Below, piece by piece: positions 14,650-30,189 of a stretch of 32,000 bases of DNA (position 1 is the first letter of the stretch; the number at the start of each line of letters is the position of its first letter). The translations under genes were made by a program, and so were the position numbers. This DNA comes from Microcystis aeruginosa NIES-2549 (GTDB lineage Bacteria; Cyanobacteriota; Cyanobacteriia; Cyanobacteriales; Microcystaceae), in NCBI RefSeq assembly GCF_000981785.2, contig NZ_CP011304.1:30001-62000 (forward strand), read 5' to 3'. The notes under the pieces are model-generated. The model saw nothing but the letters and a program-made list of their open reading frames with translations, searched no databases and was not told the DNA's origin.

Positions 14650-15117
14650 ATGAGCATCGAAAAGTCTTTAGTCTCGTCAGGTAAAAGTCTTTATCAAGAA
14701 GATTTCTACGGATGGTTACAAGAAACCGCTAATTTACTCAAAGAACATCGTTTTGAAAAATTAGACTTAGAAAATTTAATCGAAGAAATTGAAACGATGG
14801 GAAGGAGTGAAAAACGAGAACTAGAAAGTCGCTTAACCGTCATTGCCGAACATTTGCTTAAATTGACTTACTGGCTAACTGAAAAGGAAGCAAATGCTCA
14901 AGGATGGCGCAGCACAATTGTTGAACAACGCCGACAAGTTCAACGCTTATTAAAAGAGAGTCCAAGTCTGAGAAGATTGATTCCTGAAATCTGGATAGAT
15001 TGTTACCAAGCAGCCAGAGAAGATACTGTCAGAAAGTATCAACTTGCTGCTGATTTATTCCCGATTGAATCACCCTTCACCCTTGCAGAAATCCTTGATT
15101 ATGACTATCTTCCTTAG
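14650..15117 (+). CDS. DUF29 domain protein
   Basis: 155 aa. LYQEDFYGWLQETANLLKEHRFEKLDLENLIEEIETMGRSEKRELESRL is the canonical DUF29 N-terminal pattern. Confidence 0.9.
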   Translation: MSIEKSLVSSGKSLYQEDFYGWLQETANLLKEHRFEKLDLENLIEEIETMGRSEKRELESRLTVIAEHLLKLTYWLTEKEANAQGWRSTIVEQRRQVQRLLKESPSLRRLIPEIWIDCYQAAREDTVRKYQLAADLFPIESPFTLAEILDYDYLP

Positions 15118-15359
15118 AACTAAAGTTTGGTATTTTATCGATGAAGACAATGCCCAACAAAGCCAAGCGTTAAACGGCAATCACTACCTCTGATTTACCA
15201 AATCAAAGTAAGATTTAAACTAAATTCTGGCAGAATACTTTCCCCCGATAAACTCTCTGGATTAGTTAAAATTTCTACTGCCTGTCCTTGACGATAAATT
15301 TCTACTTCTCTCGTTTTTCTATTGATTAACCAACCTAAACGAGTCCCATTATCTAAATA

Positions 15360-17041
15360 GGGTTTGCTGAATAATGGTAAAAACCTTACAGGAAAGGGCT
15401 TTTAGCTTGATTGAGAGCTTCCCAAATGCACTTAAATCTGCTAGAATCTCTTAAAACCCTTGCATCACCCTTGCATCTTCTCTAATTAGTGCTAATGTAC
15501 CGTAAAAGCGAGTTACCCTCAACCCCACCAGAAAACTTCGAGCTGCCCTTTGAGGGGAAATTATCCCAAGACAATCGTTGGGTAATTATGGCCAACCTCA
15601 TTCCCTGGTCAGAATTTGAAGCGGAATACGCATCACTTTTTTCAGAAGAAATGGGCACACCCGCCAAAACATTCAGGACAGCACTCGGAGCATTAATTAT
15701 TAAAGAAAAATTAGGAACAAGCGATAGAGAAACGGTAGAACAAATCAAAGAAAATCCTTATTTACAATACTTCTTGGGGTTTTCATCCTACAGCAATGAA
15801 CCCCGGTTTGAAGCGTCAATGTTGGTTCACTTTCGAGAAAGAATCACTCTGGAACTAATTAATAAAGTGAATCGCTTTATGGTCAAAAATTCGAGAGAAA
15901 TAAAAGAAGAAGAAAATACCGAAAAAAAGTTAGAGAGCGAAACCCAAAGTCAACCAGAAAATCGAGGTAAATTAATTTTAGATGCCAGTTGTGCGCCCGC
16001 AGATATTAGTTATCCTACGGATTTAAACCTGTTAAATCAAGGAAGAAAACAAACCGAAAAAATTATTGATATTCTCTATGAAACTTTAAAAGGAAAACTT
16101 GTTCAAAAACCGAGAACCTATCGTCTTCTAGCCAGAAAAAGTTATTTAGAAGTAGCGAAAAAAAGAAAACCTACCGTCAAACAAAGACGAAAAGCTCTGA
16201 AAAGACAACTGCAATATCTGAAAAGAAATCTCGACCATATTGAACAACTTTTAGCAGAAGGAGCCTCTCTACAAAGCTTGAAAAAAAGAGACTATAAGCT
16301 GTTATTAGTAGTCACAGAAGTTTATCGCCAACAACTCTGGATGTACCAAAATAACAAACAGAGTATTGAAGACAGAATTGTCAGCTTAACTCAACCCCAC
16401 ATCCGTCCGATAGTCAGAGGAAAAGCTGGAAAACCCGTAGAATTTGGGGCTAAATTCTCAGCAAGCTGTATAGATGGTTACATATTTTTAGACCGAATTA
16501 GTTGGGATAACTTTAATGAATCAGGAGATTTAAAAGCACAAATAGAAGCTTATTATGACTATACAGGATACTATCCAGAATCAGTTCATGTGGACAAAAT
16601 TTATCGAACCAGAGAAAACCGAGCTTGGTGTAAAGAAAGGGGAATCAGAATCAGTGGTCCCCCATTAGGAAGACCAGCCAAAAATGTTAGTAAAGAACAA
16701 AAGAAACAAGCTACCGATGATGAGAGGATTCGGAATTGTATAGAGGGCAAATTTGGACAGGGGAAAAGAAGATTTAGCTTAGGTAAAGTGATGGCTAAAC
16801 TTCCTCATACTTCCTTTTCAGCGATTGCTATTACTTTTTTAGTCATGAATCTTTCTAACCTGTTGAGGCAGGTTTTTTGGGCTTTTTTATGTCTGAAATG
16901 GAAAAACAGCACTTTTTCTCGGTCAATGATTAGGATAAGTTATAACTTAAAAATTAATCAACAACTAAAGCTTATGCTTGTAGCTAAGTGAAATCATTGA
17001 TTAAGAGACCTGTACTTTTCAATGACTTTTTCAGCAAACCC
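15360..17041 (+). mobile_element. Intact insertion sequence (IS4/IS5 superfamily), 1682 bp
   Basis: Terminal inverted repeats GGGTTTGCTGAA(T/A)AA at both ends. Flanked by direct TAAATA, which is single in the uninterrupted paralog at 17644-17649. One 498-500-aa transposase ORF. Confidence 0.85.
15495..16991 (+). CDS. DDE transposase (DUF772-like N-terminal domain plus IS4/IS5-type DDE domain)
   Basis: LGALIIKEKLGTSDRETVEQIKENPYLQYFLGF (DUF772-like), LILDASCAPADISYPTD, VHVDKIYRTRENRAWCKERGIRI and RNCIEGKFGQGKRRF. Start is the ATG at 15495 or the GTG at 15489. Confidence 0.9.
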   Translation: MYRKSELPSTPPENFELPFEGKLSQDNRWVIMANLIPWSEFEAEYASLFSEEMGTPAKTFRTALGALIIKEKLGTSDRETVEQIKENPYLQYFLGFSSYSNEPRFEASMLVHFRERITLELINKVNRFMVKNSREIKEEENTEKKLESETQSQPENRGKLILDASCAPADISYPTDLNLLNQGRKQTEKIIDILYETLKGKLVQKPRTYRLLARKSYLEVAKKRKPTVKQRRKALKRQLQYLKRNLDHIEQLLAEGASLQSLKKRDYKLLLVVTEVYRQQLWMYQNNKQSIEDRIVSLTQPHIRPIVRGKAGKPVEFGAKFSASCIDGYIFLDRISWDNFNESGDLKAQIEAYYDYTGYYPESVHVDKIYRTRENRAWCKERGIRISGPPLGRPAKNVSKEQKKQATDDERIRNCIEGKFGQGKRRFSLGKVMAKLPHTSFSAIAITFLVMNLSNLLRQVFWAFLCLKWKNSTFSRSMIRISYNLKINQQLKLMLVAK

Positions 17042-22197: not shown

Positions 22198-22210
22198 GGT
22201 TAGTTACATT

Positions 22211-22248
22211 CAGTGATCAGTAAACAGTAAACAGTAATCAGTAAACAG
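22211..22248. repeat. (CAGTAAN) heptad array, 5 units
   Basis: The sequence cagtgat cagtaaa cagtaaa cagtaat cagtaaa, read directly. It begins 13 nt upstream of the permease start. Confidence 0.9.
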
Positions 22249-22273
22249 GGATAAAGATAAAGATAACTAACTA

Positions 22274-22487: not shown

Positions 22488-22512
22488 TAACTAACTAACT
22501 AATTAACTTAAA

Positions 22513-22601
22513 ACTTACATCTGATAACTGATAACTTACATCTGATAACTGATAACTGATAACTGATAACTGATAACTGATAACTGATAACTGATAACTG
22601 A
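22513..22601. repeat. (GATAACT) heptad array: 2 units, a duplicated ACTTACATCT spacer, then 8 perfect units (22544-22599)
   Basis: Read directly. The array runs into the pgi stop codon at 22602-22604. Confidence 0.95.
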
Positions 22602-24176
22602 TTAGCGGGTAGAGATTTGGATCGTTTCTGGTTTACTTAAATCGCCGGTAATAGTTAAACTGCGCTGATTAGCGTTGAGATGACGGACGATTTTATAGAT
22701 AGCTTCAACTTGGTCACTAGCGCCGATTTTAGCCGCTAGTGTGGTTAGGTCGAGAGCGGTTCCCGTTTCCCGAACAACTTGCACGATTTTTCTTTGTAAA
22801 TCCAGAATGGAAGCGGCGGCTTTTTTCCCTGCTTCTACCCCCGGTTGATGGTAGGCGTTAATATTAACTAAACTAGCATAGAAACTAACGGCCCGTTCGT
22901 AGAGGGCAATTAAGGCCCCTACCTGACGGGGAGTAACCTCTGGGATAGTGATAGTGATAGAGTGACGACTATTTTCGTATAAAGCTTGTCGAGTACCTTG
23001 CAGTAATCCTGAGAGAAAATCGCCAGCAGTGGAGCCAGTTTCCACTTCCATGGAATCTCCTTGTCGGTCTTTTAACACTTCAATAAAAGTGGCGAAGAAA
23101 TTGGGAATCCCTTCGCGTAATTGTTGAACGTAGGCGTGTTGGTCCGTGGAACCTTTGTTACCATAGACGGCGATACCTTGGTAAACCTTATTACCATCGA
23201 GGTCTTTTTCTTTACCGAGGGACTCCATGACCAATTGTTGCAGATAGCGGCTAAAGAGATAGAGACTGTCTTTGTAGGGCAGAATCACCATATCTTTCTC
23301 TCCCTTGCCCTTGCCCTCATGATACCAAGCTAGAGCCAGTAGGGCGCTAGGATTTTTTTTCAGGTTATGGACGCGGGTGGCGATGTCCATTTCTTTGGCC
23401 CCGGCTAACATTTCATCGATGTCGATACCCTGCAAAGCGGCCGGGAGAAGACCGACGGCGGATAGTTCTGATGTACGACCACCGACCCAATCCTGCATGG
23501 GGAAACGAGTTAGCCAATCTTGGGCGTATTTGTCCAGTTGGCTACCAGGCATAGTGACGGCGACCGCGTGTGGCGGAAAGTCTAAATCTTGTTTTTCGTA
23601 AGCGTTGCGGACTTCTAACATTCCGTTTCTCGCTTCGGGAGTGCCGCCGGATTTACTGGTGACGATAACCAGGGTGGTAGCTAGGGGTAAATGGGCTAAG
23701 GTGCGATCGATGCCTTTAGGGTCGGTATTATCAATAAAAGCAATCTCTAAGGGGGGATTAAGGGGGGATAGAGCCTCGGCAACGAATTGGGGACCCAAAG
23801 CAGACCCCCCGATGCCTACACAGAGGATATGGCTAAATTTTGCCCGATTGGGCGGCTTAATCGCTCCGGAGTGAATTTTCTTGACAAATTCTTTGATCTG
23901 TGCTAGGGGTTCGGTGATTTCGTCCCGCAATTCCTGGTTAGGAGCGAGTTCAGGAGCGCGCAGCCAGTAGTGGCCGACCATACGCTGTTCGTCAGGATTG
24001 GCGATCGCACCCTGTTCTAAAGCTGCCATATCTTGGAAAGCACGCTCAAATTTTGCTTCTAGACCTTTGAGAAAAGCCTCATCGAAGGGAATCCGACTGA
24101 CATCGAGATAAAGTTCTAGGTTAGGGTGATAGTATAACCAATCTTGGTAACGTTGCCAGAGTTGCAGATTATCCAT
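22602..24176 (-). CDS. pgi: Glucose-6-phosphate isomerase
   Basis: 524 aa. Cyanobacterial PGI-type sequence with GIGGSALGP and the SKSGGTPE motif. Confidence 0.97.
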
Positions 24177-24376: not shown

Positions 24377-25384
24377 ATGGCTATCTACTCATCCCCTCTC
24401 AAAATCGGTAACTTAGAAGTGCATAGCCGCGTCTTGCAATCACCTTTATCCGGTGTCACCGATTTAGTGTTTCGGCGCTTGGTGAGACGCTTTGCTCCTG
24501 ATTCCATGCTCTATACCGAGATGGTCAACGCGACAGAAATCTCCCAGCTGCAAGAGTTACCGCAATTGATGGTTATCGGGGACAAAGAACAACCAATTAG
24601 TATGCAGTTATTTGATTGCCGTCCCGATTTTATGGCTGTGGCGGCGGAAAAAGCGGTTAAAGAAGGAGCGATGACCATCGATATTAATATGGGTTGTCCA
24701 GTTAATAAAATTACTAAAAAAGGCGGCGGTTCTTCGCTTTTACGACAGCCAGAAATTGCCGAGCAAATTGTTAGGGAAGTCGTGGGAGCGGTATCGGTGC
24801 CGGTAACGGTGAAAACTCGCTTGGGATGGAACGCCCAAGAGATTAATATTATCGATTTTGCCCGTCGTTTAGAAGATGCGGGAGCGCAAATGTTGACCCT
24901 GCACGCACGCACTAGGGAACAGGGTTATCACGGGCCGGCCGATTGGCAATGGATTAAACGGGTGAAGGAGGTTTTATCGATTCCTGTCATTGCTAATGGT
25001 GATATTGTTTCTGTGGAAGCGGCGATTAATTGTTTGGAATTTACCCGGGCTGATGGGGTGATGTGTTCGCGGGGAACCCTCGGTTATCCCTATTTGGTGG
25101 GGGAAATCGATTATTACCTCAAAACAGGCAAAAAGTGGCCGAAACCCACCTCTATTGACCTGTTAAGCCTAGCTAAAGAGCATTTACAGGGGCTATGGCT
25201 ATACAAGGGACAACGCGGTATTTGGCAAGCTCGGAAACATCTGGCTTGGTATTGTCAGGATTTTACCGGTGCGGCGGTTTGGCGCGATCGGTTTTCGCGC
25301 ATCGAATCCCTGGGGGAGGGCTGTGATTTGATTGATGGAGCTATTGCCCAATTAAACCTTGAAAACGAGAATATTTACAGATAA
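24377..25384 (+). CDS. tRNA-dihydrouridine synthase (Dus family)
   Basis: LQSPLSGVTDLVFR, DINMGCPVNKITKKGGGSSLL, VTVKTRLGW and LTLHARTREQGY. The ATG at 24377 is preferred over the TTG at 24332. Confidence 0.9.
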   Translation: MAIYSSPLKIGNLEVHSRVLQSPLSGVTDLVFRRLVRRFAPDSMLYTEMVNATEISQLQELPQLMVIGDKEQPISMQLFDCRPDFMAVAAEKAVKEGAMTIDINMGCPVNKITKKGGGSSLLRQPEIAEQIVREVVGAVSVPVTVKTRLGWNAQEINIIDFARRLEDAGAQMLTLHARTREQGYHGPADWQWIKRVKEVLSIPVIANGDIVSVEAAINCLEFTRADGVMCSRGTLGYPYLVGEIDYYLKTGKKWPKPTSIDLLSLAKEHLQGLWLYKGQRGIWQARKHLAWYCQDFTGAAVWRDRFSRIESLGEGCDLIDGAIAQLNLENENIYR

Positions 25385-25484
25385 TGATCGCACCGACCCG
25401 CTATCATCAACCTTGAATGATATTATTAGTCTAAATCTCGGTCGGGTGCAGTGATTGGTTAGACAGATGGACTTTAGATGAAGT

Positions 25485-25669
25485 TTATGGAGATTTCCAC
25501 TCTCCCTCTGGGATCATGGCTGTAATCATGATGTTAGGCAATGTTCCGGTGGGTAAATCTCTCCCTTGATGGTAAGGTACGATAACTTGAGTATCTTGAT
25601 CCCTTCAAAGTTATACTTGCGTAATATGCGCTCAACCTCGTCAGCATTCATTCTCCCGAGTCGAGTCAT
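25485..25669 (-). pseudogene. hicA: hicA-like toxin remnant (internal out-of-frame deletion)
   Basis: The ATG at 25669 overlaps the hicB stop (ATGA). The N-terminus MTRLGRMNADEVERILRKYNFE is HicA-like. The C-terminal half (QDTQVIVPYHQGRDLPTGTLPNIMITAMIPEGEWKSP) is readable only in another frame. The central GSH-type segment is absent, and the first frame stops after 47 codons at 25526. Confidence 0.55.
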
Positions 25670-25869
25670 CCGACCATAACCTCACGGATTACTGCTCCGG
25701 GTAGAAGGTCGATAGCATCAGGTTGTAAATAAAGCTCGATCGCTTCGCGTATATTTTTGAGAGCTTCCTCTTGTGTAATACCGGCAGATGTGCATCCGGG
25801 CAGTTCTGGACACCAAATTGCCCATTCGTTTGTATCGGGATCGGGTTCAAGTATCACTCGCCATTTCAT
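25666..25869 (-). CDS. hicB: HicB-family antitoxin (UPF0150-type, 67 aa)
   Basis: MKWRVILEPDPDTNEWAIWCPELPGCTSAGITQEEALKNIREAIELYL is the typical short HicB fold signature. Confidence 0.8.
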   Translation of the reverse strand: MKWRVILEPDPDTNEWAIWCPELPGCTSAGITQEEALKNIREAIELYLQPDAIDLLPGAVIREVMVG

Positions 25870-26080
25870 AGGGACTAAATACTTAGAGAATTACCCAAGA
25901 TGATAATAGATGGACTCCACAAGCATAATCAATGCTCAAGCCCGGGATGACTCGATAGTGGTTCACGTTGAAAGTGCCAAGGGTTCATTATGCCCAAAAG
26001 CAATATCAGGCTGATGTTCACGGTATTTACTCAACGTTCAATGACCTGTTTTTGATCCTAAGTGATTGGTTAGATCGCTC

Positions 26081-26356
26081 CTAATTCTTACCTAGAATCT
26101 TGTCATACTCGGAGTGCGACCCAACCCAGAACCAAACTATCTTTTCTTCATCTGACTTTTTAATCCCTAATGCTCGCCATCCAATGCCGACTCTGACTGA
26201 CCAGATTTTTTCTCTTGGTTTCACCTCTTTGAACTCTAGGCTGGGGTGAAATGGATTTTCTTTCCAAATCTCGTAATTTTTCTTGGCTGTTTCTTGTACC
26301 CTTTGCGGCAAACTGAGAAAAAGTTGACGAAACCTCTTGGTTCTGGCTGACTTCAT
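26081..26356 (-). CDS. RelE/ParE-superfamily toxin (91 aa)
   Basis: Pattern ...WSVRVGIGWRALGIKKSDEEKIVWFWVGSHSEYDKIL is typical of cyanobacterial RelE/ParE-like toxins. Its ATG overlaps the upstream gene's stop (ATGA). Confidence 0.75.
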   Translation of the reverse strand: MKSARTKRFRQLFLSLPQRVQETAKKNYEIWKENPFHPSLEFKEVKPREKIWSVRVGIGWRALGIKKSDEEKIVWFWVGSHSEYDKILGKN

Positions 26357-26580
26357 TCTTCTCCAAAGCCTTTATCTTCTGTTCTCCCCTCTTGTTCTTC
26401 TATCAGGGCTTCCTGTGCCATTGTTATTAAAGCTCCCAATTCCAGATCTTCGTTAGAAAGGCTTTGCTGCCATTTTAATTCACTTTCAATATCTTCCAGC
26501 AATTGTTGAGCGAGTTCATCCTGAAGAGACTCTGGCAGTTTCTGGATTTCTGTGAATGCTTTTTGCAACAGAGTAGTCAT
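26353..26580 (-). CDS. Cognate antitoxin candidate (75 aa, acidic, helical)
   Basis: Position and 4-nt overlap with the toxin gene. Acidic helical protein (LQKAFTEIQKLPESLQDELAQQLLEDIESE...). Confidence 0.65.
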   Translation of the reverse strand: MTTLLQKAFTEIQKLPESLQDELAQQLLEDIESELKWQQSLSNEDLELGALITMAQEALIEEQEGRTEDKGFGEE

Positions 26581-26634
26581 ATTTTGTTAATGTTTTACAG
26601 GCATCGGACTATTTTACTACTTTTTCTACTCTCT

Positions 26635-26951
26635 ATTAATTATCCAGAAACTTTCCGAATAAGGAGAGTAAGGATATGCCGAAAGTTTCCGCATATCACC
26701 CCGTTTTGTCGATTCCTGACAATCAGCCGAAATAACATCAGCTTTTCCCCCGGAATTTTAGCACCAATTGTTCAATCTGACTGCACTTCGTAACAAAAAT
26801 TTACAACTCGATTATAAGCGATCGCACTCCCGTCCGTCGCTGTGCCTAGATGTTTTTAGATTATTATCATTTGCTTGAATCAATGACCATGGTGTGTTCC
26901 CCAAAATCGATCGCTGCAGCGGTAGGACTCGCATCAGGGAACGCACTTTAC
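26635..26951 (+). repeat. R1: copy 1 of a ~316-bp direct repeat
   Basis: Aligns end to end by eye with 28372-28687 (about 38 differences including a 1-nt indel, roughly 88% identity). Confidence 0.9.
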
Positions 26952-26982
26952 CATATCTACCCTAGCGGCGATCATACTGCAC

Positions 26983-28275
26983 TTAAGAATATCTACTGTT
27001 TAACTTTTCAGCCAATGCCATCCAACTCCTAGCAGAAACTCCAAAAAAGTCTTTAGCTTCTTGAAAACTTGAAAATCTGTTTTGTAGTTCTTCAGGACTA
27101 TAAGTGATTTTGATACTCCAGTCTTCTCGCATTAGTTTGAAGGCAAGCTTTGAGTTATTTTCAAATAGATCTTGTGCCAGGTTTAGCCAATCCTCTGCTT
27201 GGGATGAGAAATGCTCACGAGCAGCATAAAAATCGAAAAGCTTGTCTTCAAGTATAGAGGCTAGGTAATCAACATCACTTGGATCATAGCCAGCAAACTC
27301 TTGGGATAAATTTTCATTTGTATGGAGTAAAGTATTATCTTGTGCTTTATCCTTTTCTTGAAGCATTCTTGCAAGGTCATACCAATTGTCCGCTTCAATT
27401 TCAAAAGTCAGGCAGGCATTGTCAAAGATAATGTATTCATCCTCTAGCTCAAGAGCTAAAGCTTTTATAAGCTCTGCTTCTGCTTTTTCCCGCTCTCTGC
27501 GTCTAGCTTCTGCTTCTTGCCGAGCTACTATTTCAGGGTTCAGCTTTGTCTGAAAACTTCTTGCTTCAGTGTCTTTAAGTTTTTTCTTGAGCTTTAGATC
27601 TGCAACTGCTCTTTGTGCATTTTCATATACGTCTATTTTTTTCTGAAGGTATTTGTCAACGTTTTTAATTAGTATTATATCAATTAGAATAACTGCAAAA
27701 ATGGCTCCAATGATTAGCGTAAGATTGGCTGATTTAGAGAACAAGTATATAATGATAACTACAGGAATTAGGACAGCAGATACTCTAGTAAGTAGCTGAA
27801 ACGACTTATTTTGTTGATACTCTTGAAGCTTTTGGCGATCTTGTAGAAATGTTGATTCGTAACTACGTATCGCATCAAGGGACACAATCCTTAAGCATTT
27901 ATTTAACTTATCTTGCACAATTGGCAAGTTGCGTTGGGCTGTTGAAAGAAAGTTGTCTAGCTCATTTAAGACTCGATCATTAGTATTGCTTATGTCTGCA
28001 TTCATAGAAGCCCTAGTTGTCGATGATCCTTTGTATCGGAGGATTCGTCCATGACCTCTGGCCTGACTACGGGCTTCTCTAACCCAATATTTCAGTGCAG
28101 ATTTTTCGTTGCGAATATTATTAATTGTCTCTCGGTATATCTCAATTGCTCTTAAGCAAATAACCCCTATCTTTTTAGCTGTTTCAGCGTTAATATCGTC
28201 TTTTGATATTTCCCAAATATCTTGTGTTCTAGTTCTGATCTCAGTGGGTTTTATATACTGATAGGTATATCTCAT
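26983..28275 (-). CDS. Orphan 430-aa membrane protein: helical N-domain, 2-TM hairpin, charged coiled coil, three C-terminal W-x-x-L-A repeats
   Basis: Long uninterrupted ORF with an ATG start. TM helices at about residues 161-179 and 185-203. The EAEARRREREKAEAE segment. Repeats ADNWYDLARML / AEDWLNLAQDL / ARSWMALAEKL. Lower GC than its neighbours. I recognise no family. Confidence 0.75.
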   Translation of the reverse strand: MRYTYQYIKPTEIRTRTQDIWEISKDDINAETAKKIGVICLRAIEIYRETINNIRNEKSALKYWVREARSQARGHGRILRYKGSSTTRASMNADISNTNDRVLNELDNFLSTAQRNLPIVQDKLNKCLRIVSLDAIRSYESTFLQDRQKLQEYQQNKSFQLLTRVSAVLIPVVIIIYLFSKSANLTLIIGAIFAVILIDIILIKNVDKYLQKKIDVYENAQRAVADLKLKKKLKDTEARSFQTKLNPEIVARQEAEARRREREKAEAELIKALALELEDEYIIFDNACLTFEIEADNWYDLARMLQEKDKAQDNTLLHTNENLSQEFAGYDPSDVDYLASILEDKLFDFYAAREHFSSQAEDWLNLAQDLFENNSKLAFKLMREDWSIKITYSPEELQNRFSSFQEAKDFFGVSARSWMALAEKLNSRYS

Positions 28276-28371
28276 TTGTTTTATCTTTTTGTGCAGCTAC
28301 AGTAGTGGCATTAAACATTCATGCTGCTGCTCATAGCTTAAGCGGCACAGATGTGAAGATGCCAGCTAAAC

Positions 28372-28687
28372 ATTAATTATACAGAAACTTTCCGAATAAC
28401 CAGAGTAAGGATATGGGGAAACTTTCGACATATCACCCCATTTTGTAGATTTCTGACAATCAGCCGAAATAACATCAGCTTTTCGCCAAGGTTGCAGCAC
28501 CAATTGTTCAATCTGACTGCACTTCGTAACAAAAATTTACAACTTGATCATAAGCGATCACACTCCCATCGATCACTGTGCCTAGACGTTTTTAGATTAT
28601 TATCATTTACTTGAATCAATGATCATGGTGCGTTCCCCAAAATTGATCGCTGGAGCGGTAGGAGTTACATTAGGGAACGCACCCTAC
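28372..28687 (+). repeat. R2: copy 2 of the ~316-bp direct repeat
   Basis: See R1. Bracketed by an 11-bp direct repeat CATTAATTATA (28371-28381 and 28702-28712). Confidence 0.9.
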
Positions 28688-28902
28688 AGCTTGGAGATGT
28701 CCATTAATTATACCGCTCCCTGCTGCCAACTCCGGCACTCATGGACAGCCTTAACGAGTAATTTAGAGAGTCAACAGCTTAGTGGTCTGTCAATCTTGAA
28801 ATTGTGGATAGGGGAATCCGGCCAAATTATTCGCCCCCAATCCCTCAAAATCATCTTAACAGACCAATAGAATCGCCCTTAATTTTTGTGGATTGTCGGC
28901 CC

Positions 28903-30189
28903 CTAACTATATTCCTCCCCGACACTGAGATTAAAGAGCATTTGCAGGGATTGTAAACAGCGCTTACGCGCTTCGATATCCTGTTGGGCCCGCAGTTGTA
29001 CCATGGGTTCGTGAAGGATTTTATTAACGATACCGCGGGTCATTGCTTCGATAACTTCTTGGTGTTTTTCGGCGAATTCCGTCCCCAAACGGGAGAGGGC
29101 CTTTTCTAATTCCTGTTCGCGAATATCTTCAATTTTGCTTCTTAAACAGCTAATTGTCGGTACAGTGTCCAAAGAACGCCACCAAAGCTCGAAAGCTTCC
29201 ACTTCCTGCTCTAGGAGTGCCTCTGCTTCCCTGGCCATCTGACGGCGACTTTCCTGATTGGCGGCAACCACCGCTTTAAGATCATCGACGTTAAAAGCTT
29301 GCACTTGTGCCAATTCCTTCACGTCGGTGTGGACGTTGCGGGGAACAGAAATATCGATTAACATCAGCGAGTTAGCAGCAATCGTCACTTCTGTCAATAA
29401 ATTTTTAGTTAAAATTGGTTCCGTGGCCCCGGTACTGGTAAAGACGATATCCGATGCCGCTACCGTAGCCATCATCTCTTCTAAGCCATATAGTTGGATT
29501 GGTACGTTAGGAAATTCACAGGCCAACTCCTGGGCCCGTCTTTGGGAGCGATTGACGATCGCAATTTGCTGAGAACCCTTAGCCAGAAGGTGAGTAACTA
29601 ATAATCGGGACATTTTCCCTGCCCCGATAATAGCGATTTTCTTGCTGCTGAGGTCTGCCACCTTAGCATGGGCTAACTCCACCGCCGCCGAACTGATCGA
29701 TACGGCTCCCGTGCCGATGCTGGTTTCCGTGCGGACGCGTTTACCGGCAGTCATCGCTTGTTTAAACAGGCGATCGAGTAATTGGCTAATACTATTGTAC
29801 TTTTGAGCTAATTTATGGGTATTTTTAACTTGAGCGAGAATTTGCCCTTCCCCGAGGACAAGACTTTCTAAACCGGCCGACACCCGGAGCAGATGACGGA
29901 CAGCATCCTGATGCAGTAGGGTAAACAGATAACGACGCAGGACATTAAGGGGAATATGCCCGATTTCAGCGAGAAACTGGGTAATTTCCACCACGCCCTT
30001 TTCCGTATCCGTAACCACGGCGTAGATTTCCAAACGGTTACAGGTGCTGATAATAGCCACCTCTTGGATGTGGGGATAACCCTTGAGGTGGGTAAGGGCG
30101 GACTCGATTTTCGCTTCCGGGATACTCAATTTTTCGCGAATTTCCACAGGGGCTGTCTTGTGACTCAAGCCCACTACAGCAATATTCAT
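28903..30189 (-). CDS. hemA: Glutamyl-tRNA reductase
   Basis: 428 aa. [31 protein letters not shown] and the NADPH-binding IGAGKM motif. Confidence 0.97.

Follow-up and report, generated by a model that had tools for sequence, protein, structure and literature searches.

We analysed a 32,000-nt stretch of DNA from Microcystis aeruginosa NIES-2549 (positions 30,001 to 62,000 of contig NZ_CP011304.1; hereafter, the window), and in particular a repeat, which we term R, that is present in two copies between hemA and dus. Read on the minus strand, this interval contains hemA, a putative decayed remnant of R, the copy R2, a cassette with a gene for a 430-aa protein, the copy R1, a ParE-like toxin-antitoxin (TA) cassette, an attC site with a deletion, a HicBA cassette, a canonical attC site, and dus. 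R1 and R2 are probably non-coding modules of about 330 bp, specific to Microcystis, that lie between the cassettes of an integron-type array with no integrase nearby (that is, an array resembling a CALIN, a cluster of attC sites lacking integron integrases).

Structure and distribution of the repeat R

R1 (26635-26951) and R2 (28372-28687) are direct repeats in the same orientation, with 88.8% identity over 312 nt (E = 1e-108; MAFFT and blastn). A repeat search splits the pair into two adjoining blocks of 90% identity each (26760-26951/28496-28687 and 26635-26750/28372-28487), and blastn finds only these two copies in the window. Using a profile hidden Markov model built from seven full copies, we widened the units slightly, to 26632-26963 and 28368-28696. 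Both are full copies on the minus strand by nhmmer: R2 spans profile columns 8-336 (E = 4e-117) and lies between the hemA-proximal spacer and the 430-aa cassette, and R1 spans columns 5-335 (E = 1e-118) and separates the 430-aa gene from the ParE-like TA cassette. An initial annotation of this DNA had described the pair as same-orientation repeats of about 88% identity, which is far above chance, and had given the distances from R2 to the start of the 430-aa ORF (96 nt), from R1 to the start of the antitoxin gene (54 nt), and from the stop of the 430-aa ORF to R1 (31 nt). These values are all correct. It had also noted the lack of terminal inverted repeats and of a credible ORF, and we agree: our repeat search found no terminal inverted repeats (internal imperfect palindromes are present), there are stops in all six frames, and no frame is kept between R1 and R2.

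One potential gene within R was rejected. A 32-codon upstream ORF (MLFRLIVRN...) is kept in R1 and R2 in spite of a 6-nt indel, but its ATG is absent from a frequent form of the repeat ("variant 2", columns 201-240). R could also be derived by decay from part of a duplicated gene or from an integrase or platform region, as open frames of 40-96 aa overlap it on both strands. We consider this the least likely of the explanations discussed here because of the stops in every frame, the missing start codon of the sole shared small ORF in the common variant, and the variation among copies, which shows no codon periodicity by eye. Also, IntI1 and XerD were used as phmmer queries on the 295 ORFs (100 aa or longer) of the window and of all loci that we collected (~242 kb), and no tyrosine recombinase was found at E ≤ 10. 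No tRNA or tmRNA was found with ARAGORN. The whole window had no match in Rfam 15 at gathering thresholds, and a permissive search of 26400-28950 gave only chance-level matches (E > 1), all outside R.

On the gene-sense strand (the minus strand of the window), R is modular, with modules a, b, c, and d plus a tail. Module a is an imperfect hairpin (GGGTGCGTTCCC...GGGGAACGCACC) that in most copies begins directly past the upstream stop codon. In R1, its predicted stem (GTGCGTTCCC...GGGGAACACAC) is at 26892-26946, about 35 nt past the upstream stop codon, and the R2 equivalent is at 28627-28684. Almost every R piece has module a at its 5' end, and so does a "short R" of about 115 nt that consists of module a and the tail. 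Module b is an AT-rich stretch with a highly iterated palindrome (HIP1) and ends in a moderately conserved -10-like box, which is TATAAT in R1 (26811-26816) and TATGAT in R2 (28547-28552), just as initially annotated. R pieces that keep modules a and b alone diverge directly past this box, and nine truncated pieces stop at profile columns 148-158 and continue with a different leader (VapBC type). Module c (GTTGTAAATTTTTGTTACGAAGTGCAGTCAGATTGAACAATTGGTGCT; 26760-26807 in R1 and 28496-28543 in R2) is a near-invariant block of 48 nt, with 98-99% column identity across 26 copies, while neighbouring 20-column bins drop to 77-86%. Module d and the tail (26632-26759 in R1 and 28368-28495 in R2) contain a GCTGA/TCRGC hairpin, whose loop occurs in two variants, followed by the related palindromes pal1 and pal2 (26673-26697 and 26641-26661 in R1), and then a second -10-like box, which is GATAAT in R1 and TATAAT in R2 (28375-28380). 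The second box is exactly TATAAT in 23 of 28 tails and lies 4-5 nt before the G of the junction. (The centre of pal1, at columns 268-292 or window positions 26673-26697 and 28410-28434, occurs in two mutually inverted forms, GCGGAAACTTTCGGC and GCCGAAAGTTTCCCC, as if the tip of the hairpin had been flipped; R1 and R2 carry opposite forms.)

Block c might act as an operator, mark the start of a transcript, or form the core of a recombinase-binding site. As judged by eye, with no scan made, its motifs and spacings do not fit an NtcA site, a LexA site, or a CRISPR-like repeat. If R were chiefly a transcribed regulatory element, either a 5' leader or a small RNA from the first -10-like box, then block c would be its functional 5' end and its position at cassette boundaries would be secondary. 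This fits the invariance of the 48 nt directly past the first box. Also, RNAalifold predicts a sense-strand structure (97.9% paired) with several G-U pairs and ten one-sided wobble switches, which would be mismatches on the other strand, so a structure in the sense-strand RNA is compatible with the data. However, none of the 42 pairs shows a compensatory double change, and shuffles reach the observed scores in 500 of 500 cases, although the copies vary too little in sequence for this to be decisive. Furthermore, R does not fold with better energy than shuffled sequence (z = -0.6 and -1.5), it has no match to an Rfam family, and the first -10-like box is variable. The structured RNA gene that the initial annotation had listed as an option thus gains no support from covariation, and we consider an RNA as the main function of R to be unlikely.

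R is a low-copy module that is confined to Microcystis among the collections that we searched, and it is not a dispersed repeat. An exact 22-mer from its best-conserved block occurs in 10 stretches among 185,579 species-representative genomes, all of them from Microcystis; two complete chromosomes are among these, with a single match each. A second exact 22-mer occurs in 12 metagenome stretches. All of the core matches in the genome and metagenome collections lie within arrays. Both 22-mers are absent from viral contigs, and plasmid and phage records have no similarity to R. These results bear on another option from the initial annotation, a non-autonomous element. R would then be a transposable element (a miniature inverted-repeat transposable element, or MITE, or a palindrome-associated element of the IS200/IS605 type) that landed twice by chance. 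The lack of an ORF, the subterminal hairpins near both ends, and the abundance of insertion sequences (IS) and MITEs in Microcystis would fit, but besides the low copy number and the missing terminal inverted repeats, the flanks show no target-site duplications, R is confined to cassette arrays and always has the orientation of the array, and deletions and recombination within arrays account for the partial copies. So, the transposable-element option is not upheld, and we view it as very improbable.

R or pieces of R separate different accessory genes in 30 or more Microcystis loci (labelled L001 and so on below), which bears out the cassette-like layout, with R just 5' of different payloads, that the initial annotation had seen in the window. 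Each locus contains several full or partial pieces of R in one orientation, 1-2 kb apart, with unrelated payloads in between, and this orientation is nearly always that of the payloads (L001-L022 and L041-L047). The payloads include VapBC (with a PIN domain), the ParE-like TA pair, HicAB, DUF433 with DUF5615, NYN with OST-HTH, a Shedu SduA_C protein, a restriction-modification-like unit, 8xMP, DUF1349, a GT2 glycosyltransferase, a LuxR-type regulator, DUF7919, and proteins without a family. XisH/XisI and a nucleotidyltransferase are on the opposite strand. PADLOC, run on five payloads, gave a single weak Cas4-like match, for a 135-aa protein. In the metagenome loci L013 (322-395), L014, and L021, R is cut at column 288 and is followed by a weak attC-like match (27 bits) and then by a type I restriction-modification-like methylase/specificity pair and a PIN gene.

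attC sites, cassette boundaries, and the position of R

We aligned eight attC sites from Microcystis ParE cassettes and a related cyanobacterial contig (L031). They fit the classical architecture, with an R box (CTAAC/GTTAG), a 5-6-nt spacer, and an L box, and six pairs show compensatory changes. A covariance model built from these eight sites has matches beyond its training set, both after ParE cassettes in many strains (67-85 bits) and in L050 (51 bits). In the window, the array is closed by a canonical attC site on the minus strand (25377-25467; cmsearch, 47.4 bits, E = 4e-8), which overlaps the dus stop codon at its 3' end. The last attC of L042 and L043 also ends within the dus stop region (...GCGATCG|TTATCTGTAAATATTC, TTATCTG). 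A degenerate attC lies past the ParE-like toxin (26027-26078, minus strand). It keeps the R box (ATCTAAC...GTTGAGT), its L box is deleted, and it was found at 9.9 bits (E = 0.17) with the cmsearch filters off; its intact homologues in other strains reach 67-85 bits. A CALIN, by the criterion of IntegronFinder, has at least two attC sites close together, and the strong site and the deleted one are 560 nt apart.

The boundaries of the payloads are also those of integron cassettes. Nearly every payload past R begins with GTTAG(C/A)TGGC, GTTGGAT, GTTAAAC, or GTTTAC, which corresponds to the integron core G|TTRRRY. The start GTTAGCTGGC is shared by DUF1349, the 430-aa gene, and two others; NYN payloads start with GTTAGATGGC or GTTGGATGGC, GT2 with GTTAGATGTC, and ParE with GTTGGATTGC, and we also saw GTTAAACC and GTTTAC. 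The DUF1349 cassette, which begins with GTTAGCTGGC, ends in an exact inverse core (GCCAGCTAAC) and a short attC. TA cassettes are enriched in these arrays, and some of them are inverted. By its attC architecture and its G|TT boundaries, the locus is structurally a cassette array of the integron or CALIN type.

The 430-aa cassette (26977-28371, minus strand; ORF 28275-26983) begins at an integron core (G|TTTAGCTGGC, with the G at 28371). Its DNA is 93% identical to Nostoc sp. LLA-1 (L033) over window positions 28369-26977 only: the homology begins about 2 nt past R2, and it ends 6 nt past the stop codon and about 13 nt short of R1. Canonical attC sites accompany the 430-aa gene in L031 and L033 (79.4, 73.8, and 63.1 bits), and the sites that flank it elsewhere have the form ...GCCAGCTAAC-N~70-CAAC|GTTAGCTGGC. 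We consider the locus to be an integron-type array because this gene is flanked by attC sites elsewhere, because the window contains canonical attC sequence that matches the covariance model, and because the payloads start at the integron core. M. aeruginosa NIES-3806 has the 430-aa protein with 100% identity, and homologues from Nostoc, Symploca, and other cyanobacteria have 76-91% identity; the protein has only a weak match to DUF4271 and, by eye, a central transmembrane segment. Between Microcystis and L033 or the metagenome contigs L031 and L032 (from the Joint Genome Institute), the gene is 90-93% identical at the DNA level, which implies a recent transfer of an integron cassette across genera. 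In the window, the cassette has lost its own 3' untranslated region and attC at ...GTGCAG|TATGATCGC. Together with the 5' end of R1, which is of the type found past the 135-aa gene, this suggests that the attC and an adjoining cassette may have been deleted. (We also tried TATGATCGC as a precise left end, or transposon terminus, of R and rejected it, as the junctions are better explained by deletions at AG/AGTA microhomology within cassette-R units.)

The same cassettes occur past attC and past R. The ParE cassette follows a canonical attC in L050 (...GTTAAACCG|TTAGATGGCAAAAGTAGAAAAAG) and the tail of R in L047, L005, and L041 (...TATAATTAATAG|TTGGATTGCAAGAGTAGAAAAAG), and the junction is at the identical nucleotide whichever site precedes it (attC|TTAGATGGC in L050 versus R|TTGGATTGC). 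The 430-aa cassette shows the same equivalence, as it is flanked by attC in L031 and L033 and lies past R2 in the window. In the arrays that we mapped, R is never directly 3' of a canonical attC: a payload unit is followed by either R or attC. Because the same cassettes begin at the same G|TT whether attC or R precedes them, R occupies the attC/attI slot. That is, R fills the place between a payload and the G|TTRRRY core of the next cassette, where a canonical attC otherwise sits. We have fairly good confidence in this interpretation of the array and of R's slot within it.

The remaining parts of the array are the ParE-like TA cassette (26081-26580, minus strand; antitoxin 26580-26353, toxin 26356-26081; Pfam ParE_like, E = 4e-9), the HicB/HicA cassette (25526-25869, minus strand; listed ORFs, with Pfam HicB_lk_antitox at E = 6e-9), and the spacer between hemA and R2 (28697-28902, minus strand). 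By-eye comparison of the spacer with the R profile suggests a decayed remnant of module d (GACAATCCACAAAAATTAAGGG, about 28872-28897) and a remnant of the R tail (GGTATAATTAATGG, 28701-28714). Outside Microcystis, homology to the R tail is only hinted at. Two short stretches upstream of the 430-aa cassette in L033 (about 2300-2325 and 2418-2447) resemble pal2 and the TATAAT tail (GTTATCTGGAAATTTTCTGTATAAT; GGAAAGATTCCGTCTAATAATATAGTTAG|TTAGC), and their alignments score as high as the best of 200 shuffles or slightly higher. The window also contains repeats that are unrelated to R: a 410-nt direct repeat of 88% identity that overlaps Uma2-family genes (17041-17447/17643-18049), a 126-nt repeat of 97% identity near an IS (15234-15359/17524-17649), and short tandem-repeat arrays with a period of about 7 nt that match each other in both orientations (347-437, 1932-2022, 22209-22255, and 22488-22606).

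Recombination at R and its possible function

The copies of R are mosaics of each other. Over its first ~80 columns, R1 has 0-2 mismatches to the copies in L001 (0-1 mismatches) and L003 that lie 3' of the 135-aa gene of a 132/135-aa gene pair. Its 3' half, from about column 225 up to the junction, is the same as in the copy of M. panniformis FACHB-1757 (L045), including a private 12-nt deletion that removes the core. R2 is a different mosaic. As the copies are mosaic, recombination within R shuffles the adjoining payloads. Across 68 pieces, the divergence of the 3' part of R was 0.080 for pairs with the same downstream payload and a different upstream payload, 0.103 for the converse, and 0.138 if both payloads differed. 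This pattern, although modest, is opposite to what would be expected if a whole R moved with its upstream cassette. Some payloads lie within R and are surrounded by duplicated R segments (DUF7919 between columns ...266 and 82..., and VapBC between ...155 and 72...), which is the pattern that single crossovers or unequal exchange leave behind. A duplicated att core at columns 197-223, as from the tandem integration of an element, was considered and rejected: the apparent left boundary beside a DnaJ-domain gene is a diverged copy of modules c and d.

The array is both a cassette hot spot and a synteny breakpoint. The ParE TA cassette and its attC adjoin dus-pgi in most of the strains sampled, but what lies upstream of them varies among 10 strains, some of which have R and some of which do not. 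The upstream flanks include hemA (in the lineage of the window only), a DnaJ-domain gene with a kinase, a GGR/SLH gene pair, dnaA/def, a desaturase, and IS elements. Short-read contigs with the 430-aa gene break inside R on both sides. The initial annotation had proposed that R might be the homology arm or attachment site of a recombination hot spot where payload genes are swapped. This idea holds, as R separates varied payloads and the locus by dus differs strongly between strains.

Several other features of these loci are worth recording. In L041 (5137-12659), a single array is bounded by the DnaJ-domain/kinase flank on one side and by the dus-pgi flank on the other; elsewhere, these look like two array sites, which implies rearrangements that break at the array. 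IS elements with DUF772/DDE transposases, of the family found at 15010-16506 in the window, lie in the last few bases of the R tail in L042 (7891-9700) and L020 (12371-12700). In L045 (9204-9397), two tandem copies of an insert of about 92 nt (AGTACCTAGGCAAAATTATTTACACATGACG...) lie exactly between the stop codon of the 135-aa gene and R, and this insert may be a small mobile element.

What might R have done in the attC/attI slot? We propose that its 3' tail (pal2, TATAAT, 4-5 nt, and a G) would have served as the partner site when a tyrosine recombinase of the integron type joined cassettes to it. As it lacks the fold of an attC, the tail would be of the attI kind, and it has the position of an attI site, with a cassette directly 3' of its G|TT. 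The attI-like behaviour of the tail is a tentative suggestion from the sequence, to which we give somewhat less than even odds. Similarly, R may supply a promoter, although here too we lean slightly towards the negative: the conserved TATAAT is just upstream of the junction, and as it is 4-5 nt before the G, a transcript from it would begin at the first bases of whichever cassette was inserted. The portable promoter-plus-leader that the initial annotation had offered as an option is still plausible. Finally, with about 300 bp of homology, RecA-type recombination between R copies could swap, delete, and rearrange the adjoining payloads without an integrase. In the most far-reaching version of this proposal, R represents a new class of integron recombination site, a double-stranded attI-like landing pad with a built-in promoter that lies between cassettes, with block c as a protein-binding core, and both an integrase acting in trans and homologous recombination reshuffle the array in a polyploid host. 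We think that this version is rather doubtful.

A number of observations count against our interpretation. First, R does not resemble the site whose place it takes: even with filters off, the attC covariance model has no match in R on either strand, and the termini of R are unpaired in the predicted folds (minimum free energy of the whole R). If the tail is folded as a miniature attC, it reaches only -1 to -4 kcal/mol, versus -15 to -17 kcal/mol for canonical sites. Second, some junctions do not have a G|TT core, such as those of the VapBC and DUF7919 payloads within R, so not every event was site-specific. R1 itself lacks the core, as its 12-nt deletion removed TTGGATTGCAAG relative to L005 and L047. 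Third, as there is no tyrosine recombinase in ~242 kb of array-bearing DNA, any role of an integrase would be historical or exerted in trans. Fourth, the linkage of the parts of R to their flanks among the 68 pieces is modest. And fifth, a generic sigma-70 scan found no excess of promoter-like sites over shuffled sequence and none at either TATAAT.

A different explanation for the slot is that R is itself a substrate of the attC class and is recombined as a folded single strand. It would be either a very long and atypical attC that belongs to the upstream cassette or a "promoter cassette" that has no gene and whose attC is degenerate. This would account for R and canonical attC being mutually exclusive in the slot, with R never directly after a canonical attC. 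Also, the ~115-nt short R is within the normal size range of attC, the hairpin of module a has an AAC-GCACCC motif in common with the 5' half of canonical attCs, and many upstream ORFs end with YYTAAC. In the cassette with the 132/135-aa gene pair, AGGTATAAC near the 3' end is complementary at 8 of 9 positions to the start of that cassette (GTTAAACCT). Gene-less promoter cassettes are known from Vibrio superintegrons (PMC11014356). On the other hand, the covariance model has no match in R, and the termini are unpaired in the predicted folds of either strand. The 5' edge of R has no G|TT core, and the 3' part of R follows the downstream payload more than the upstream one, which is unexpected if the whole of R moved with the upstream cassette. 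With its ends unpaired and no match to the model, the whole R was rejected as a giant attC. For the tail as a mini-attC (an R''-like ATCCTTAC, a 5-nt spacer, pal2 as the L box, a 6-nt spacer, and GTTRRRY), the geometry fits, but the fold is weak, it is weaker still on the bottom strand, and there is no covariation; this was rejected as well. An attC-class R in some form seems unlikely to us, and we prefer a module that took the slot without being an attC.

Significance and comparison with known systems

Microcystis is the main toxic bloom-former of fresh waters and has a notoriously plastic genome, and to our knowledge it is poorly understood how its many toxin-antitoxin and defence genes are moved. 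Part of its accessory gene pool is organised as integron-type cassettes, and at least one cassette is common to Nostoc at 93% DNA identity. A long repeat that is not an attC has taken the position between cassettes, and standard tools, which cap the length of attC, would miss it. If R is a landing pad with a promoter, then the integron concept would be extended, and the R tail and the invariant block would offer a concrete handle on the capture and expression of cassettes in cyanobacteria; if it is a new class of site, then arrays could grow at many internal points. That the array is a synteny breakpoint, with a left flank that varies by strain, is also relevant to strain typing and assembly.

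Integrons of cyanobacteria are known in general. We found no description of Microcystis integrons, attC sites, or cassette arrays, or of R, in the searchable literature, which is absence of evidence only, and Microcystis is not listed in the supplements of the IntegronFinder papers. The initial annotation was right about the cassettes and the hot spot, but its reading was incomplete, as it missed the integron context, with canonical attCs and G|TT boundaries. Its statement that R is not any described element stands insofar as R fails the tests for an attC, a MITE, and an Rfam family, and R did not prove to be a catalogued IS or MITE or a decayed gene (no terminal inverted repeats, low copy number, no kept frame). 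It does not stand for the locus, which is an integron-type array. R is best seen as a new variation on one component of an established type of system, the chromosomal integron or CALIN array, and the locus is a recombination hot spot of partly new design.

R also differs from the mobile elements that it might be taken for. Like MITEs and palindrome-associated elements, it is short and non-coding and contains internal palindromes, but it is low-copy and confined to arrays and lacks terminal inverted repeats and target-site duplications.

Gene-less promoter cassettes occur in the superintegrons of Vibrionaceae, with ordinary attC sites on both sides (bioRxiv 10.1101/2023.11.21.568050; PMC11014356). 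R is similarly a non-coding unit within an array that could drive downstream cassettes. However, R lacks both a G|TT at the 5' edge and an attC that we could recognise.

The likeness of R to an attI site with its cassette promoter Pc is in position and orientation alone. R is not a hairpin, it ends at the G|TT crossover, and a candidate promoter just upstream points into the cassette; also, a diverged copy of modules c and d and the tail is found at an array end, beside a divergently oriented gene. In contrast to attI, several copies of R are present per array, each preceded by other cassettes, and there is no adjoining integrase gene.

The closest relatives of these arrays are sedentary chromosomal integrons and CALINs such as the superintegron of Vibrio cholerae, with its V. 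cholerae repeats (VCRs). In both, tandem and mostly co-oriented cassettes are promoterless or encode TA pairs, some of which are inverted; the attC sites have R and L boxes and the boundaries are G|TTRRRY; a species-specific repeat lies between unrelated ORFs; and some cassettes are common to several genera. The VCRs of the Vibrio superintegron share the pattern of discovery of R. The size range of attC is 57-141 bp, but the Microcystis repeat is about 330 bp, does not match the attC model, and is not folded like an attC. It coexists with canonical attCs in one array, with no intI in the window or the collected loci, and the recent exchange of cassettes in Microcystis seems to run through homology within the repeat.

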